Assembly: GCA_963845755.1 (NCBI GenBank)
Contig: CAWJTV010000049.1
Coordinates: 1-64,000 of the forward strand
DNA length: 64,000 nt
Source of the DNA: an uncultured Planctomycetota bacterium
GTDB taxonomy: Bacteria > Planctomycetota > Planctomycetia > Isosphaerales > Isosphaeraceae
Reading direction: 5' to 3'
Each line of letters starts with the position of its first letter. Positions within the stretch are counted from its first letter, which is position 1. The notes under the pieces are model-generated. The model worked only from the letters and a program-made list of their open reading frames with translations. It was not told the DNA's origin and ran no database searches. The position numbers were made by a program, and so were the translations under genes. Below, piece by piece: positions 2,897 to 46,137 of the stretch.

Positions 2897-5800
2897 TCAC
2901 GGAGGCGCGAACGGATCGGCGGGGAATCGGAGGTCTCCGTAGATCCGCTTCACGCCGGGATCGGCGAGGATTCTCTCGAGGTCGGCCCGGTGCTCGAGCG
3001 GTCCGGCCTCTTCCGTAAGAATGATGATCTGTTCGATCGTCCAGCGCATCTCGGCCTGTTGCTCGACACTGATGCCCGGCTCGCGCTCCTTTAGACCCCG
3101 ATAAGCGAGGAGCAAACAAGACTCGGCCTCTCGGTACTTCCTCTGCCCGAGCAGGCTGGCGCCGAGGCGTGCCTCGGCCATGAACCGGTTCCAATGGTCG
3201 GGCTCTGCCGTCGTTCGGAAATCCCGCTCCTCGCGGAAGTAGGGCTCGGCTTTCGCGGGGTCTTTCCGCTTGAGATGATACATCCCGACGGCCCGGTCCA
3301 TCCCCACCGTGATGCCGTCGACGCCGTGTCGGGCGTGCCAGATTTCGCGGGCCTCCCGCAGGACGGGCCCCATCTTCTTCTCATCCCCTTTCAGACGGTA
3401 GACGTGGTAGAGCTGCGACAGGACGGCTGAAAGCAGTTCGTGGTTGGGATCGAGGACGGCTCGGGCGCCTTTCGCCGCTTCGATCAATAACCCCTCGGCC
3501 TTGTCGAGCTGTCCTTCGTACTTGTAGAACTCTCCCAGATCGTGAAGGGTACGCACCGTATCGGCATGCGTGTTGCCCAGGATCCGCCGTTGCACTTTCA
3601 AGACGTCTTCGAGGATCTGCTGCTTCTCAGTCGGCCGTTTCAGGTAACCGTAAAACCTCGCCAGGTTCGTTTTCGCCAGGAGCGTATCGGGATGTTCGTC
3701 TCGCCCGATACGCGTCATCGATTTGACGACGCCTTCCAGGAGTTCCACAGCCTCGGGGAACTTTTTCCGTTCCGTATAAGCCATGGCCAGGTCATTGAGT
3801 ACGCCGAGTGTTTTGGGATCGGCGTCGCCTTTGGCCTTCCGGAAGGCGGCATACACCCGCTCGAGCATTGGTTCGGAATCGGCGTACTTCCCCTGGAGAT
3901 AGTAAAGTTGGCCCACCAGATAGTACGCCTCGTACGTGTCGAGGTGCTCAAATCCCCGTGCCCGTTCGAGGCCCTTTCGCGCGCCCAGGAGGAGCGTCTC
4001 GGCTTCCTTCAGCTTACCGTCGGCAAGATCCAGGGAACCCAGGGCAGCTTGTGCATTGAGCGTATCGGGATGATCGTCGCCGAGCCCCCGCCGGCGAAGG
4101 TCCCACGCGGCTTCGAGCTGCCGGGACGCCACGGGGTACAAGCCAAGCTGTTGGTAGGTCTCCCCGATCGTCAATTGGATCGAGGCCCGGAGCAAAGGCC
4201 GTTTCGCGAATCTCGCGTTGACGATCGCGGCGGCGGCGTCGAGCACCGTCCGCACCTTGAGATCGGGATCCGGCCGGGCTTGATTATACACGCTGGCGTG
4301 GCCGAGCAGATCCTTGGTGAGGAACTCGTTGAGCGACGATGCGTTGGCCGCCTCGAACTCGGCCCGGTCGCGCTGACCACGCGCTTCCGATTCGGCCTTG
4401 ATCGCTCGGACGGCCTGCCAGCCGCTGACGACAATTCCCACCACCAAGGTCACGATCGATGCGGCCACCCACGGATTTCGCCGGCACCAGCGTATCAGGC
4501 GTTCGGAAAGTCGTCGCGCGCCGCGCGAGGATCGTTCGCCCATCGAGGAACCGTCGCAAGTCATCGGCTAGCGCCGCCGCCGCCGCGTAACGCCGATCCG
4601 GCTCACGCGCGATGGCCTTGTGGATGATCGTCTCCAGGTCCCGGGGAACCTTCGGCGCCTGCGATCCCAGCCGCGCCGGCCCTTCGTATCGAATGCGTTC
4701 GATCAATCGGAAGCGATCCCCGTCGGTAAAAGCCGCGCGCTGGGCCGCCAGCTCGTACAGGCTCAGGCCCAGGCTGTAGATGTCGGACCGCGCATCGCAC
4801 TGACCCTGAAACCGTTCGGGCGCCATGTAACGGACCGTGCCCACGACGTCGCCGGTGGCCGTCAAGTCATCAACTCCGATCGTCTTCGCCAATCCGAAGT
4901 CGGTGACCCAGACGGTTCCTCCGCCGTCCAGCAGCAGATTCGAAGGCTTGATATCGCGATGAAGGACACCCTGGCGGTTGGCGTATTCCAGCGCCTCCGC
5001 GACCTGAACGCCGATACGAGCCACGAACTGGAAATACGGACGCCTGGGATCCGATTGCGTTGAACAGTTCGCCGGACCCGGTCCGGATCACGGAAGCGTG
5101 ATAGGGGCGAAGGAACTCCGAAGGAACGAGCGGCGGAGGGAATTCGGCGGTCTGCGCCCGAGTTGGCGTCGGTCGCAGTCCCCGACCGGCGGAAGTGATG
5201 CACTCTCGGGGAACTGGCCACCCTCCAGCGCTCGCGCCACATCGGTCACGCTGATCGTGGGATGGGAGGGAATCCCGGCCGGATCCCGGACGTCGGGCCG
5301 ACCCGGGCCATTGAGCCGTTCGGAACACTTGGTCCCCAGTGAGGCTGACTCAGCCTCACGGAGCCGGCGCAACTCGTCGAGGACGGCGTCGAGTCCGAAG
5401 CCGTCAATGTACTGCATGAGATAATAGTGGTGCCCATCCTGCTCGCCCACGCCGAAGACGGGGACGATGTTGGTGTGATGCAGTCGCGCCGCGGCCTGGG
5501 CTTCGCGCTGGAATCGCTTGACTTGCCCGGCCAGGATGGGCGAGTGGAAGGGCAACACCTTGAGCGCCACGAGCCGGTTCAGTCTCAGGTCCTCGGCCTC
5601 GTACACGATCCCCATTCCGCCGCGGCCGATCTCGCGAATGATCCGCAGGCCATCGATTCTTGGGTAGCCCTCGAACGATGACGGGGACCGAATTCCATTA
5701 GCCGGCTCTACTCCTTCCGATCCCCCGATCAAGAAACCGGCCGCGTTCGGCCCGGGTGGGCAATCGTCATGATTTCCCCATCGAGGCCCCTTCGCCTCGA

Positions 5801-6008
5801 CGCGATCGAGCAGGCGCGCAATCCGTTCGTCGTTCTCGCGGTTTGAAGGCAAGGACTCGGCCGGATCGCGGAGATTCGTCATCTGTTCCAGGAGCTGCTG
5901 ACACGAATCGCATTGCTCGATGTGGGCTTCGACCGCCAGATGCTCCGAAGGTTCCAACTGATCGAAGAGGAACCGCTCGAGTTGTTGTTTGGTCGCGCAG
6001 GGGCTCAT
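2897..6008 (-). CDS. Ser/Thr protein kinase with N-terminal zinc-binding anti-sigma-like motif, TM helix and C-terminal TPR repeats (frameshifted into 3 ORFs)
   Basis: HIEQCDSC; IGRGGMGIVY, VALKVL, HHTNIV (5088-6008); HRDIKPSN, DFGLAK, GTVRYMAPE (4284-5024); RWCRRNP + TM + HPDTL-type TPRs (2897-4564). Confidence 0.9.
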
Positions 6009-6040
6009 GGCGGAATCTCGACGGTGGGTGAGGTCCGGGT

Positions 6041-6658
6041 TCAGTTCGGATCGCCAGTATCGCAGACATGTTCGAGTTTTCGGATCTCTTCTTGAAGCAT
6101 CTGGCGAACGCTCGACTTCGCCTTGTAGACGGTGCCGACCTTCATTCCCAGGTCCTCGGCGACCTCGCGGGTGGGTCGTCCATCACACGCCGTGGACTGG
6201 TAAGCGTCCCAGGTCTTCGCCTCCACGCGGTTCCGGACGGCTCGGGTCGCCTCCTCGAGCAGTTCGAGGTCGAATTCCCGCTCGATCCGCGAGACCAGGT
6301 CGTCGCGCGCCTGCTGGCTCGCGAGGAGGTCGAGGTTCTCGCTGCCGCCGGCGGCACCCTGCCGCTGGTTTCTCCGCCATGCATCGTGGAAGGCGTCGGC
6401 GGCGACCTTTTTCAGGTAGTTGCGGAACTTCCGTGACGGATCGCGACGGAATCCGGGCAGCTTCACGGAAAGCCTGGTGAGAACGGCCTGGGTGATGTCC
6501 TCGGCATCGGCGTCCTGGGCCCCCCAGGTGCAGCACCAGCGCAGGATGCATGGGCCGTAACGCTTGGCGAATTGCCTCCAGGCGTCCTGGTCCGGTGGCA
6601 ACAGCGCCACGCGGAGGAGCAGAGAGGAACTCGTTTGCAAGGCACTGCGAGCCGGCAT
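6041..6658 (-). CDS. ECF sigma-70 factor, kinase-associated planctomycete type
   Basis: TSSSLLLRV..DQDAWRQF..DAEDITQAV region 2 and EVAEDLGMKVGTVYKAKSSV region 4 HTH; directly upstream of the kinase. Confidence 0.9.
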   Translation of the reverse strand: MPARSALQTSSSLLLRVALLPPDQDAWRQFAKRYGPCILRWCCTWGAQDADAEDITQAVLTRLSVKLPGFRRDPSRKFRNYLKKVAADAFHDAWRRNQRQGAAGGSENLDLLASQQARDDLVSRIEREFDLELLEEATRAVRNRVEAKTWDAYQSTACDGRPTREVAEDLGMKVGTVYKAKSSVRQMLQEEIRKLEHVCDTGDPN

Positions 6659-40985: not shown

Positions 40986-41111
40986 TAGCGTCGCTCTGCG
41001 AATTCCCCGGAAGACTCGGGATGCTGACTTGGGTAGAATTGATCAACATCCTGCCTGACGTCAAGCGGTAGTCGAGAAACCGACCATGCTTCCGAAAAGA
41101 GTCATTCGTCT

Positions 41112-41600
41112 ATGAAACCAGTTCGGCGCCTCAACCTCGATGCGTTCGAAGGAGATAGTAAAGTCGGCTCTGAAACGAATCGCGAGTATTTCCGGCGCGA
41201 TCAACGTGATGGCATCAGCCCTCCGGATTTATCCAAGCAGTGCACGTTCGCCGAGCATATCGTGCATGCACGGGGCAAACGAACCCGATACACAAGTGTC
41301 TCGCTTGATCTGACGAGGATCAAAGACTTCGGGGACACCGACTTTCGTCTGGAACGGCAAATCCTCCTTCAGGATCGGCACGAATTGGTCGAGCATGAGA
41401 TGTTACTCGGCGAACTTCGAAGAGTGATCCGCGAAGGTGAGAAGGCAGAGCGTCAGCGAGCGATCCAGGCGATGAGATACGCAACAAGGCGCAAAGAGGG
41501 TCTGGTGAACTGGTCCTTCGACATCACGCGAGTCGCGCCGAAGAACCTCTTGACCTGGACCAAGGCTCGAATTCAATCCTACTTCAGACGGCTAAAATGA
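41112..41600 (+). CDS. Hypothetical protein, putative R-S-E ADP-ribosyltransferase fold
   Basis: N-terminal VRR strand, GISP..EHIVHARG..YTSVSLD, and AMRYATRRKEGLV. Confidence 0.5.
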   Translation: MKPVRRLNLDAFEGDSKVGSETNREYFRRDQRDGISPPDLSKQCTFAEHIVHARGKRTRYTSVSLDLTRIKDFGDTDFRLERQILLQDRHELVEHEMLLGELRRVIREGEKAERQRAIQAMRYATRRKEGLVNWSFDITRVAPKNLLTWTKARIQSYFRRLK

Positions 41601-42412
41601 TGGATGAGCTATTCTCTTGCCGCAATTGCATTCACAACGCCGGGCAGAGTCTCCTGATCGGCCAGGGCTCAGGATTCTGCTTGCAGCACGAATCCGTCGT
41701 TTGGGAACCCGATCGAACGACCTGCAAATATCTTCACCGCAAGGATCTGCCTTACTTCGTCGTGGAGGAAGGGATTCGCGAACACGCTGCCGAGTTCGCC
41801 GGATTCCCGTTTCTGGTTTCGCTTCATGAGAAGAAATCGATCGAGCGGATTCCCTACAGCGAGAAGCTTCGATGGGAAAAAAAGTCCTTCGATCCAGTCG
41901 TTCATTCGCTGGCCCAGTATTACAAGGTCCAACCGAGGTGGATCTTGATTTCGGCTCTTTCCGGAGGCGTGGACGGCCGGCGTTCACTCACTCACAGCTC
42001 TCTTGTTCGACATTATATGTATCAGTGTAATACCTGGAAGAGTTCGTATCGCCTAGTACTCGGCCTCTTGGAGGAGATCGACATCAAGCCCCAATTCGAG
42101 CCCCGAGAGATCGTCCGTTCGGAGGGCACTTCCGACGCGGAGGCGGCCGAGGAAGCAACTTGGGATGTGGTCTTCGCTCGCTTGAATGCGGTTCAAGAAT
42201 ATGGCTGGCACGCGGGTCTCGAAACCCTCATGTGGGCCAGCGACGCACTCAACGGCAGCCTGGCTGAGTTGAACTGGCCAGGTCTGCAAGCCGAGTTGGC
42301 GACACATCGCGCGTCGTGGATCAAGCTGATCATCTCGAGTGCGAAGAAGCACCACGAATTCTTCCCGACGCCGGAACCCGGTTCAGGGAGGGCCTCCGAT
42401 GTTGAAGAATGA
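41597..42412 (+). CDS. Hypothetical protein with N-terminal Cys/His metal-binding cluster
   Basis: CRNCIH..FCLQH..TCKYLH; ATGA-type overlap with the upstream gene's end (41597-41600). Confidence 0.7.
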   Translation: MMDELFSCRNCIHNAGQSLLIGQGSGFCLQHESVVWEPDRTTCKYLHRKDLPYFVVEEGIREHAAEFAGFPFLVSLHEKKSIERIPYSEKLRWEKKSFDPVVHSLAQYYKVQPRWILISALSGGVDGRRSLTHSSLVRHYMYQCNTWKSSYRLVLGLLEEIDIKPQFEPREIVRSEGTSDAEAAEEATWDVVFARLNAVQEYGWHAGLETLMWASDALNGSLAELNWPGLQAELATHRASWIKLIISSAKKHHEFFPTPEPGSGRASDVEE

Positions 42413-42452
42413 GTGCCGACGACGCCGATCGCTTTGATTTTCGAAAACTCGT

Positions 42453-43584
42453 ATGAGAACCTCCATGCGGATTACCCGAGTTGAAGCCATCCCCGTCCGC
42501 GTACCACTCAAGGCGGGGATGACCACGAAGACAGCCCACGGCGACCATCACACGTCCGACTACGTGATCGTCCGGGTCCACACCGACGAGGGGATCGTCG
42601 GGTTGGGCGAGGCGACCGTCTCGGCTCTCTGGAGTGGCGAGACAAGCCGGAGCTGTGTCGCCGCCATCGATGACCTGATCGGCCCGGCGCCGTTCGGCTC
42701 CGATCCGACCGGGATTACGGCGATCCGGAAACAGATGGATTACCTCATCAAGCTCAATCCTTTCACGAAGTCGGCCATCGAGATGGCGCTCTGGGACATC
42801 GCGGGCAAGTCCCTGAATGTCCCGGTCTACCAGCTCCTGGGTGGCAAGGTCCGGGACGTCATCCCGACCAAGATGATGATCGGGGCCTTCGACCTGCCTC
42901 GCGTCCGTTCGCTGGCCGAACAATTCCTGAACTGGGGCATCCGCTGCCTCAAGGTCAAGGTCGGGATCGACGTGGCGGGCGATGTCGCGCGGGTTAGGGC
43001 CGTGCGCGACCTGGCCGGCCCCGATATCCCGATCACCATCGATGCGAATTGCGGCTGGAACGTCACCACGGCACGACTCGCGCTGGAACAACTCCGCCCG
43101 TTCCGCTTGCTTGTGGCCGAACAGCCAATCGGGACGGGAGATACCGAGGCGATGGCCAATCTGCGGACGGCCTGCGGCATCCCGATCATGGCCGACGAGA
43201 GCGTGTTCACGCTTGCCGACGCCTGGAATGTGCTCCGCGCACAAGCGGCCGACGTGATCAGCGTTTATCCTGGCAAGAACGGTGGGATTGTTGCATCGAT
43301 CGAGATCGCCCAGGTGGCCCAGGCGGCGGGGATCTCCTGCCACGTCGGCAGTAACCTGGAATTGGGCATCGGCTCGGCCGCGATGCTGCATCTGGCCTGT
43401 GCCGTGCCGAACATCGATAGCGCGACGTACCCTGCCGACATCCTCGGCCCGCATTATCACGAGGCCGATCTGCTCACCGAGCCGCTGGCACTGAACCCGG
43501 ACGGAGCCGCGCGTGCCGGATGGCCCCGGACTCGGAGTCGCGCTGGACGAGGATCAGCTCAATCGGTTCCGAGTCGATCGTTGA
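42453..43584 (+). CDS. Mandelate racemase/muconate lactonizing enzyme family protein (frameshift near 43510)
   Basis: TDEGIVGLGE, SAIEMALWDIAGK, LKVKVG, IDANCGW, EQP, MADESV; end VPDGPGLGVALDE in the shifted frame. Confidence 0.9.
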
Positions 43585-43651
43585 GGGATCGATCGAGCCC
43601 AGCGGTCTTGTGGTACCGTCCGACCTCATCACTCCGAGGGAGACCTCCACG

Positions 43652-44445
43652 ATGCAGCCCGCCGACCCCACCCCGGTCCCGCCACCAGGCTCGATCGAGT
43701 CGCCGTTGGTCACCCCCGGAGCCTCTCTCAAGGTCCCTGTGGGCCGCGGTCGGCTCTGGTCCTGGCGCTGGGAGCGGGACTGGTGGCCGGTCTCCTTTCC
43801 TGGCTCGGTGGTGAGGAGTGCCTCGAACTGATCAAGCCACCGCGCCACTCGGTGAACTCGAAGGGGCTGACTTTGAGGGTCACCAGTCGCCGCGAGGAAG
43901 CGGCCGTCGTCGCCAAGAACGCGGGGCTGGCGTTCCTTCTCCTCGGTGCCGCGCTCGGCGGCGCACTGGGAGCGGCCGGCGGACTGTCCCGCCGGTCCCG
44001 CCGGGCGGCCGTGCAGGCGGCCTGGATTGGCGGGGTGATGGGCGTGGTCGCGGCAGCTGGGATGTCCTTGGCTCTCTTGCCCGCGTACAACGCCTACCAG
44101 CGACGCTATCCGGATGAGGCATCGCGCGACCTGGTCTTGCCCCTGCTTGTCCACGCCGGTATCTGGTCGGCTCTGGGTGCCGCGGGCGGCCTGGCGCTCG
44201 GCGTGGGCCTGGGCGAGCGCGCTCGGATCCCCCGGATCGCGCTGGGCGGATTCCTCGGCGCGGCTGTTGGCGCCGCAGCCTACGAGGTCATCGGTGCTTT
44301 CTTTCCCGCGGCCAGGACCGCGCAGTTCGTATCCGCGACCTGGGAGACCCGCCTGCTCGCCCGCCTCGTCGTCACGCTCCTCGCCTCCGCCGGCGCGGCG
44401 ATAGGTGTGTCCTCACCTTACGCACAGCCGGATTCCACGGGCTGA
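43652..44445 (+). CDS. Hypothetical Gly/Ala-rich membrane protein (frameshift near 43780)
   Basis: Multiple GA-rich TM helices; RBS-like GAGGGAG before ATG 43652. Confidence 0.65.
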
Positions 44446-46137
44446 GTTCGACTTTTGCCGATTGTTTGGCTTCCGCGGGGCTGCGCCTCCTTGGTGCAAT
44501 AGAGGGTAGGGATCTCCTCTCACATCGCACACAAGGAGGCCGCCATGACTATTGTAACACCTCGACGCCGGAAGCGGATCTCTCGAAAAGACCTCCGCGT
44601 CTTGCGACGGCGACAAGCCCAAAAGGCGCGGGCCGCTCGACACCTACTCGACCGCAATCACGACCAACTCCCCGCGCCGGTCCGCGCCCTCTTCGACCCC
44701 CTGCAACCGGCCTTTCGCCGCACCGTCTACCGCCGGTGGGTTCTGCTGGCGCTGGCCGCCATCCTCACGGTGGGCGGACGCACTCTCTCCAATCTGCTCC
44801 GATGCCTCGGCGGCTTGGCCCCCGGTCATTCGAGTAGTTATCACCGCATCTTCTCCCAGCGCCGCTGGTCCTCCCGCACCCTGGCGCGGCGATACATCGC
44901 CGCCGTGCTGGCGCGATTCGCACCCCAGGGCCTCGTGCCCGTGGTCGGCGACGATACCGTCACCGAACATCCCGGGCCCCGGGTCTACGGCAAAGGGTGT
45001 CACCGCGATCCCGTCCGTTCCACTCACTCGTTCACCGCCTTCCGCTGGGGACACAAGTGGGTCGTCCTGGCCCTGCTGGTCCACTTGCCGTTTTCCCGCC
45101 GGCCCTGGGCTTTGCCGTTGATGGTGTCGTTGTATCGGCCCGAGGACAAGGCGACCGACGGGGTTACCAAGCGGTGCGCACAAGACCCCGGCGGATTTGC
45201 TGGCACAGATGCTCCGCATCCTGATCCGCTGGTTCCCGGAGCGAACGTGGCTCGCCACGGCCGACGGCGATTACGCGACCCACGAACTGGCCGAATTGGC
45301 CACGGCCAACCCCAAGCGGCTGACGTTCGTCAGCAAGTTCTACCCCAACGCCAATCTGTTCGAGCCGTCGCCGCCGGTCTCGGGCAAGCGGCCGGCCCAT
45401 CGTCCCCGCAAGAAGGGGAAGGCACTGCCCAAGCCGGCCCAGGTGGTGCGCGACTGCCGTCAGCCCTCGGTGCTGAAGGTCGCTTGGTACGGAGGGGGAC
45501 GCCGCCGTGTGGAAGTAGTCAGTGGCCGAGGTCACTGGTATCGCGGTGGTCGGCCCTTGGTGCCGGTGCTCTGGGTCTTCGTCCGCGACCGGACTGGGAC
45601 GCACCGGGACGAGTATTTCTTCACGACCGACCTGACCATGAGCCCCCAGGCGGTGATCGAGACCTACACCGGTCGCTGGTCGATCGAGACGACCTTTCAA
45701 GAAGTCCGTTCCTACCTCGGCCTGGAGACGACGCGGGGCTGGAGTCGGCGGACCGTCTTGCGGGCGGCACCGTGCCTGTTTTGCCTGTATACCGTGGTGG
45801 CGTGGTTGTACACGGAGATGCCCAGACGGTACACACGCGCGGGTGGTGGATTGGCCGGGAAAGTGCGACGTGACGTTCTCGGATGCCATCACGGCGGTAC
45901 GGCGCTGGCTGTGGGTGGAATGGGTTTTTGCAATCCCTGGTCATCGCGAAGCCTTTTCAAAACTCGGTCGTCCTTTGAGGCAGATCCTGCTCAATGGACT
46001 GGCCCCGGCCGCCTGAGACGGGCCGCCGGGCCACGTTAAGGAAGCCCGCGCGGGGCGAATTGCGGTCGTGCGGCGCCCCCGCTCGATCGCGGTGTGCGCC
46101 GCGGGCGTCGAGGTGTTAGAATCGGCCAAAGTCGAAC
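44446..46137 (+). mobile_element. IS701/IS4-superfamily insertion sequence with DDE transposase 44545-46016 (frameshifted)
   Basis: TIRs GTTCGACTTTTGCCGATT / AATCGGCCAAAGTCGAAC; TGA duplicated (44443-45, 46138-40); VGDDT, ADGDY, YTGRWSIETTFQE. Confidence 0.88.

Follow-up and report, generated by a model that had tools for sequence, protein, structure and literature searches.

A predicted stand-alone ADP-ribosyltransferase and its four-cysteine partner: a probable toxin-antitoxin module in Planctomycetota

Several described bacterial systems couple a protein of the ADP-ribosyltransferase (ART) fold to a partner encoded beside it. DarTG and CmdTAC each encode a cytoplasmic ART toxin together with its antidote, and ParST and RES-Xre are two-gene modules with an ART-fold toxin. 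TreX-TriX of Xenorhabdus bovienii (PDB 8S2M) and TreThr-RhsFI comprise a small ART of the arginine, serine, glutamate (R-S-E) class in the bacterial cytoplasm, with an inhibitor gene directly downstream (PMC11606950, PMC13617354). TreThr is closest in structure to TreX; its substrate is tRNA, which provides a precedent for a nucleic-acid target (PMC13617354). Here we describe a pair of genes in a 64,000-nt stretch of DNA from an uncultured Planctomycetota bacterium of the Isosphaeraceae (assembly GCA_963845755.1, contig CAWJTV010000049.1, positions 1 to 64,000 of the forward strand; hereafter the window). Gene 1 (41112-41600, + strand) encodes a stand-alone 162-aa protein of predicted R-S-E-class ART fold, the predicted toxin, and gene 2 (41597-42412, + strand) a 270/271-aa protein with a four-cysteine N-terminal module and a helical body, the predicted antitoxin. 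We think it probable, though by no means assured, that the two constitute a toxin-antitoxin module in which a metal-binding antitoxin binds a cytoplasmic ART toxin. The pair is real and conserved, and as a two-gene system it is apparently undescribed; no account of it was found in the available portions of the literature searched (including PMC9503650, PMC13069673, PMC10810742, PMC10790755 and PMC7764402), and long supplementary lists of candidate ART or defence proteins may include the family.

Linkage of the two genes and one-sided loss of gene 1

That gene 1 and gene 2 are real genes is plain from their homologues and from purifying selection on both. Searches returned 285 homologues of gene 1 among 315 candidates and 456 of gene 2 among 1749 (the best 120 listed for each), and proportions of non-synonymous and synonymous differences (pN/pS) over 16 close pairs were 0.158/0.723 for gene 1 and 0.138/0.764 for gene 2. 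Among the matches listed, those with names are hypothetical proteins of Planctomycetota and Acidobacteria. The two genes are co-directional and overlap in the sequence ATGA, and the second ATG of gene 2 is its conserved start. Linkage was scored at 81 gene-2 loci, comprising 79 metagenomic loci (the best of 115 confirmed), one further genomic locus (L001) and the window itself: a gene 1 match lies directly upstream at 69 of the 81, and at 67 of the 73 with at least 300 nt of upstream sequence, with a gap of -1 to +9 nt in all 45 intact loci. Protein distances of the two genes correlate (rho 0.41, reached in 0 of 999 permutations), as common ancestry would equally produce. The association extends to a 17.9-kb plasmid (NZ_CP135728.1), where a gene 2 of 23% identity stands behind a 143-aa open reading frame (ORF), P0392, that scores 16.3 bits on the gene 1 profile (maximum 4.7 over 1000 shuffles) and keeps the motifs LLRGD, RHIL, YLSAS and RYAxxWxE; this pair has HicAB, ParDE, an integrase and IS66 as neighbours, and isoelectric points (pI) of 8.0 and 8.2. 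Since no further plasmid carries this distant subfamily and it is absent from the 400 phylum genomes searched, its partner gene is known from the plasmid locus only. No third gene recurs beyond the orthologous site across 59 locus groups. Two adjacent, coupled genes thus travel together, in the manner of type II toxin-antitoxin systems. At one locus (L029:351-2812 and 4095-6556) the pair stands in a tandem double copy together with a DUF1016/SNase gene (PADLOC PDC-S02).

The pattern of loss bears on which member might be harmful. Both profiles were run alike over two overlapping sets, 120 genomes from the family and 400 from the class, and the 11 genomes besides the window's own that carry either gene form the only set free of the bias of starting from gene 2. 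Two of these have both genes intact (G415, G477), seven have gene 2 alone intact, two have both damaged, and none has an intact gene 1 without gene 2. Among the seven, gene 1 is broken by a stop (G401), by frameshifts (G473, G479) or by an internal deletion (G482), is absent even on a deeper look (G435, G509), or is divided between two contigs, an 8-bp duplication giving it the look of an insertion (G713); among the two, all four genes are frameshifted in G478 and a fragment of gene 1 is all that is left in G480. The lesions of gene 1 differ between genomes. As a genomic proxy for the rule that a toxin is not kept without its antitoxin, seven cases thus stand against none, with a single locus of the wider set described next (L080) unclear. 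That set consists of 91 loci in 67 groups at 95% identity, seven of them without room for gene 1, and among the 60 scorable groups 41 have an intact gene 1, 13 a broken one and 4 none, and 2 are mixed; gene 2 is broken in 2 of the 13 groups with a broken gene 1 and in L080. Groups in which an unbroken gene 2 accompanies a lost or broken gene 1 were counted as 17 of the 60. Loss that is one-sided in this way fits a toxin and its antidote, and fits neither a harmless regulatory pair nor a toxic gene 2.

Two sets of near-identical populations (L012-L020, and L023/L024/L027/L028/L031) carry gene 1 either intact or stopped or deleted beside an intact gene 2, which is toxin loss still under way. At another locus (L032:9437-10810), most of gene 1 is gone and its place is taken by the gene of a small ParE-like toxin with a likely antitoxin, immediately 5' of an unbroken gene 2.

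Predicted folds and motifs of the two proteins

Gene 1 is predicted, from its motifs and a structural model, to adopt the split beta-sheet fold of the R-S-E (cholera/pertussis/Rhs-tip) class of ARTs. Its conserved blocks are YFRRD, EHIVHARG, TSVSLD and YAxRRKEGLV. The first (41187-41201, + strand) would supply, by the class pattern, the arginine that binds nicotinamide adenine dinucleotide (NAD), Arg28, which is present in 120 of 121 aligned sequences; the stretch AEHIVHARGKRTRYTSVSLD (41250-41309, + strand) holds, by alignment and model, a conserved histidine helix (His49, 120 sequences), a basic loop and the S-x-S strand (Ser62, 120; Ser64, 119); and YATRRKEGLV (41478-41507, + strand) holds Arg127 (119) and the putative catalytic Glu129 (118), an assignment drawn from the alignment, the model and a comparison of class loops. 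An earlier note on this DNA, made from the sequence alone, had recognised the S-x-S and EGLV motifs and the cholera/pertussis/Rhs-tip class, and both identifications stand. Its choice of an N-terminal VRR as the arginine strand does not, as Arg5 occurs in 10 of the 121 rows and faces a gap in 107.

The AlphaFold2 model (predicted local distance difference test, pLDDT, 89.0; predicted template-modelling score, pTM, 0.80) places Arg28 on the first strand (27-31), Ser62 and Ser64 on strand 60-64 and Glu129 on strand 129-133, with a helix at 46-52 and two long helices (95-108, 111-127) ahead of the glutamate strand. When the model was compared with 48,161 chains in the wide VIA search, the first 22 rows were all ART-fold proteins. 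The best Z values, all below the VIA threshold of 8 and individually weak, were those of TreX (7.0; root-mean-square deviation 2.9 over 95 aligned residues), EcPltA (6.8), pertussis S1 (6.6), Scabin (6.2) and KptA/Tpt1 (5.5); a second structural comparison agreed, and the Foldseek top ten consists of CARDS, TreX-type, pertussis and Scabin chains. The structure search that the earlier note had proposed thus returned ART folds at moderate scores. Neighbours of gene 1 in a language-model atlas carry Pertussis_S1, Scabin and NarE families (scores 0.93-0.95). With Z values of this size, the case for an ART rests on the consistency of the matches, the placement of the motifs and the atlas neighbours. 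A Scabin-like Pfam family went unmatched in the pair's own genome, where the control likewise matched nowhere. The first two atlas rows (score 0.96) are clusters of 143-aa Pseudomonadota proteins with 97 and 63 members; given that P0392, the partner on the plasmid, has the same length, they may be the toxin of the distant subfamily.

The catalytic loop departs from that of the class, in which the ARTT loop reads X-X-aromatic-X-X-E/Q-X-E and the sixth residue selects the acceptor (PMC7827354). The corresponding RYATRRKE has alanine at the aromatic place and, in 39 of 39 intact copies, arginine where the class has E/Q, Arg127 and Glu129 occurring together in all 39 intact pairs; the region is helical in the model. 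These departures, with tryptophan in place of the acceptor-selecting residue in the plasmid copy, are what favours the idea that gene 1 destroys NAD+ as a glycohydrolase or phosphorylase, still as the toxin of a toxin-antitoxin pair. In keeping with it, the first glutamate of the ExE motif of TreX is needed for transfer and the second for hydrolysis too (PMC11606950), and ART-fold NAD phosphorylases exist in toxin-antitoxin pairs (PMC9503650). We hold it distinctly improbable, however: the nearest structures (TreX, pertussis S1, Scabin, Tpt1/KptA) are transferases, and Arg127 is invariant, with a conserved basic loop that hints at the binding of an anionic substrate.

As the earlier note had observed, gene 1 lacks a signal peptide: no hydrophobic N-terminal stretch is present, and 105 of 107 family proteins are likewise without one. 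Homologues are short, 98 of 120 measuring 140-152 aa (the first ~14 residues missing) and 114 of 120 measuring 140-175 aa. These lengths bear on the proposal that the pair is an orphan cassette of a polymorphic toxin of the Rhs, contact-dependent inhibition (CDI) or type VI secretion kind, that is, a spare tip with its immunity gene, as the top structural match to an Rhs tip, the toxin-then-immunity order and the low guanine-plus-cytosine (GC) content would suggest. Gene 1 nonetheless has its own start; only two longer forms turned up among 8000 scored candidates, neither with an Rhs or haemagglutinin family or otherwise a carrier toxin (a weak search); a carrier family was found in 0 of 99 neighbouring ORFs at 37 loci; and in several genera the pair keeps a single position flanked by metabolic genes. 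Membership of an Rhs/CDI cassette was rejected on these grounds, and the proposal is largely disfavoured, to the point of being highly improbable. One longer protein, P0390 (374 aa), has gene 1 behind a domain matching PADLOC PDC-M31B, which could reflect either a genuine fusion or read-through from a neighbour.

The likely metal site of gene 2 (41618-41785, + strand; zinc or an iron-sulfur (Fe-S) cluster) runs Cys8-x2-Cys11-x16-Cys28-x14-Cys43, followed by RKD (48-50) and His63. In an alignment of 142 sequences, formed by thinning a near set of 115 rows and adding 54 full-length representatives, Cys8, Cys11, Asn14, Cys28, Cys43, Arg48 and Asp50 are invariant down to about 20% identity, and Gln17, His63, Asp99 and Arg138 are nearly so. 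The earlier note had grouped the ligands as CxxCxH, CxxH and CxxxH. That grouping fails in the distant subfamily, where His13 is kept in 17 of 41 sequences and His47 is not among the three commonest residues (His63 is kept in 37 and His31 in 34); because the four cysteines are invariant and these two histidines are lost, the site is probably CxxC-x16-C-x14-C. This spacing is reminiscent of the CxxC-x~16-C-x~14-C of 4Fe-4S high-potential iron-sulfur proteins (HiPIP). A profile search of 1.84 billion representatives recovered 149 gene 2 proteins, including the distant subfamily (~270 aa, 19-27% identity), whose records, among ten looked up, include Variovorax and a deltaproteobacterium, with an intermediate form in Sorangium.

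Gene 2 is modelled with high confidence (pLDDT 95.3, pTM 0.92) as a loop-and-strand N-terminal module on a helical body. Foldseek against the PDB found no clear fold match (best E 1.1), the wide VIA search only generic helical repeats (best Z 5.9; 5.7 on re-ranking), comparison with viral models no clear match (best E 0.32), and the atlas only low-scoring small unnamed proteins (0.76-0.77); these missing matches, all from searches with the whole protein, do not show the fold to be new. The first 66 residues matched no PDB or Pfam entry. For both genes, searches of Pfam, PADLOC, NCBIfam and PHROGs gave nothing beyond chance rows, also member by member; at E <= 1 against Pfam, NCBIfam and PADLOC a chance TARBP1 row was the sole return, and PDB sequence searches with four alignments gave chance rows only. 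The claim that gene 2 is unlike DarG macrodomains and ARH hydrolases is borne out by the lack of any similarity in the searches run.

The conserved polar residues raise the question of whether gene 2 might instead reverse the damage enzymatically, as an ADP-ribose eraser with a new, metal-dependent fold in the role of DarG or Tri1. Invariant Asn14, Arg48 and Asp50, with others near-invariant, exceed what is usual for a pure binding partner; gene 2 often outlives gene 1, as a broadly useful eraser would; and there are precedents for an eraser partnered with an ART toxin (PMC12945103, PMC11606950). Yet gene 2 has no macrodomain, ARH or NADAR match by hidden Markov model (HMM) or structure, the invariant residues cluster around the cysteines in sequence and may be structural, and orphan antitoxins are common anyway (PMC10790755), such that we judge the eraser unlikely.

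Genomic setting

The upstream neighbour of the pair is a dimethylformamidase-like gene (DMFA2_C, E 4e-57 in Pfam) and the downstream neighbour a mandelate-racemase/enolase-superfamily gene (MR_MLE, E 4e-48). Two overlapping genes of low GC content had been reported between them, and both ORFs are indeed present, with 55.1% GC for the pair against 64.1% for the window, a value equally low in 0.5% of 1300-nt windows; GC at third codon positions is 0.62 and 0.66 in the pair and 0.84 and 0.82 in the flanking genes. A scan of the genome collection with a single-protein query returned one true locus (L001), with 81-88% identity to the window in the flanking genes, and one spurious one (L002). The suggestion that relatives might have the flanking genes adjacent proved correct: among 20 other genomes with the upstream gene, five (G432, G420, G438, G425, G408) have the enolase-family gene adjoining it, and the pair is therefore read as an insertion. 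It is kept at this site across several genera with a divergence like that of its metabolic neighbours (76-92% against 81-90%), and is rare, being found in 0 of 400 genomes of a phylum-wide sample. A functional link to the flanking metabolic genes was considered and rejected, as the flanks differ at nearly every distant locus.

This setting also bears on the possibility of a non-toxic regulatory pair, similar to DraT/DraG, or of a gene 2 effector that gene 1 modifies, perhaps in connection with the flanks. Slow, vertical evolution at the site and the many loci in housekeeping DNA are in its favour. Set against these are the changing flanks, relatives that carry the flanks without the pair, and the want of a recurring third gene outside the orthologous site. 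Moreover, a gene 2 harmful on its own could not persist alone, yet it does, and if neither gene were harmful the longer gene 2 should be lost at least as often, the opposite of what is observed. We regard such a pair as very unlikely.

Of 132 roughly called neighbouring ORFs at 37 loci, 99 were compared with Pfam and a selection of 34 with PADLOC. Near 14 of the 37 loci lie toxin-antitoxin, defence or mobile genes, a count that stands without a background control, and validated defence families near four (type I restriction-modification, DruE, pAgo, IetAS). Homologues were not found in annotated phages or viral contigs. Because defence families lie near so few loci and most loci lie in housekeeping DNA, an anti-phage reading is weakly supported. 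At one locus (L044:8407-11561) an HD-CE domain gene and then a 752-aa gene, near an integrase, stand beside the pair and possibly form a further conflict system.

A TAGAAT box (41034-41039, + strand) may be the -10 element of the pair. Similar boxes recur 5' of orthologous loci, and where gene 1 has been deleted such a box immediately precedes gene 2; TA[GTC]AAT within 200 nt upstream occurs at 12 of 41 loci, against 10% of shuffles. A consensus scan around the pair found no full sigma-70 promoter, and no terminator, terminal repeat or target-site duplication was found there. Further downstream, the enolase-superfamily ORF (42453-43814) is 88% identical to its L001 orthologue until residue 352, after which an unrelated tail brings it to 453 aa where the orthologue has 387; this points to a frameshift near 43510 that may itself be a read error. 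Window positions 44545-46039 hold transposase-like sequence, so labelled from a reading of the sequence, over two overlapping and apparently frameshifted ORFs (442 and 280 aa).

Proposed action and comparison with known systems

In the toxin-antitoxin reading, the gene 1 product would use NAD+ to modify and thereby poison a target in its own cell, and the four-cysteine partner would neutralise it, most likely through direct binding. An acidic gene 2 (pI 5.9; family median 5.4) and a basic gene 1 (pI 10.2; family median 9.4) fit direct binding in the window's subfamily only. The acceptor may be anionic (RNA, DNA or a phosphate group) rather than arginine, a guess prompted by Arg127, the basic loop and surface, the Tpt1/KptA matches and the TreThr precedent. 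The cysteines of gene 2 would hold zinc or an Fe-S cluster; once oxidation, metal shortage or infection had stripped the site, the antitoxin would become unstable and release the toxin. The analogy is with MqsA, an antitoxin whose stability is under the control of an N-terminal zinc site and whose degradation depends on zinc occupancy (PMC8808172). Selfish maintenance is the likely benefit, and abortive defence against phages may be a second role. A bolder and rather doubtful version sees here a new class of ADP-ribosylation switch, with gene 1 an R-x-E transferase acting on a phosphate or nucleic-acid acceptor and ruled by an Fe-S or zinc protein of new fold; this protein would either sense redox or metal collapse during infection and let the toxin go, or be an ADP-ribose eraser of a fourth kind, in addition to the macrodomain, ARH and NADAR types. 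The earlier note had read the pair as a cytoplasmic ART effector under an unusual metal-binding antitoxin or sensor; its ART fold, linkage and empty site hold, while its catalytic arginine and metal ligands had to be reassigned.

Several observations weigh against the toxin-antitoxin reading. Gene 1 has no HMM match to any ART family and no Foldseek match at E <= 0.001, its R-S-E triad was assigned by motif and strand order, and with E/Q-x-E and the aromatic loop residue missing its transferase activity is not assured. No helix-turn-helix family match was found in gene 2 and no clear operator repeat at the pair. The charge contrast (median pI 9.4 against 5.4) fails in the distant subfamily, where the gene 2 median is 8.75. 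The rate of change at the site is slower than an arms race would suggest, and 23 of the 37 loci have no conflict gene nearby. As for the losses, the chance of seven one-sided cases if lesions fall by length (0.37^7 = 0.001) overstates the case, because read errors may underlie two of the frameshifts and a single event two of the deletions; the metagenome loci are the best gene 2 matches, such that the wide set is biased to intact gene 2; and L080, where gene 2 is frameshifted and a contig end cuts gene 1, whose visible half has no stop, is a possible counter-example.

A toxin-antitoxin module of this kind would resemble MqsRA by analogy only. There too the toxin gene comes first, but MqsR is an RNase, the cysteines of MqsA are arranged as CxxC...CxxC with a spacing unlike that of gene 2, and neither the sequence nor the fold searches brought up MqsA. 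TreX, the best structural match of gene 1, and TreThr are tips of secreted Rhs proteins, whereas gene 1 stands alone; TreX carries ExE and modifies FtsZ (PMC11606950) where gene 1 has R-x-E, and gene 2, at 270 aa with four cysteines, has no match to TriX. Pertussis S1, EcPltA, CARDS, cholera A1 and Scabin share with gene 1 the fold and the motif order R, H, S-x-S, E (Z 5-6.8), from which gene 1 differs in being 6-15% identical, in lacking a family HMM match, a signal stretch and E/Q-x-E, and in having a cytoplasmic partner and no B-subunit or delivery gene near the pair. Among ParST and RES-Xre systems, the RES toxins have Y and N in place of S and E and are accompanied by a helix-turn-helix antitoxin (PMC9503650), and ParT scores only Z 3.2 against the gene 1 model, as DarT scores only 3.5 (VIA).

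By analogy, the pair most likely works like DarTG or CmdTAC. It belongs to neither: CmdTAC membership was rejected, as gene 1 is R-S-E and no third gene recurs, whereas CmdT has an HY-[E,D,Q] triad and CmdTAC a short helical or unstructured antitoxin with a SecB-like chaperone (PMC11618068); and DarTG membership was rejected for want of a DarT HMM, macrodomain/NADAR or PADLOC match for either gene, DarG being a macrodomain or NADAR hydrolase (PMC12945103). The proteins are small, soluble and confidently modelled, so that target, metal and mechanism are directly testable. Whether gene 2 were a new inhibitor fold, an eraser or a metal or redox sensor, each would add to the biology of ADP-ribosylation, and the R-x-E motif may mark a new acceptor chemistry. 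If the favoured reading is correct, the pair adds to the toxin-antitoxin systems catalogued in Planctomycetota and other little-studied phyla a self-acting ART module built on an enzyme of the cholera/pertussis class, whereas DarTG, CmdTAC and ParST/RES use other ART clades and macrodomain, NADAR, helix-turn-helix or unstructured antitoxins.

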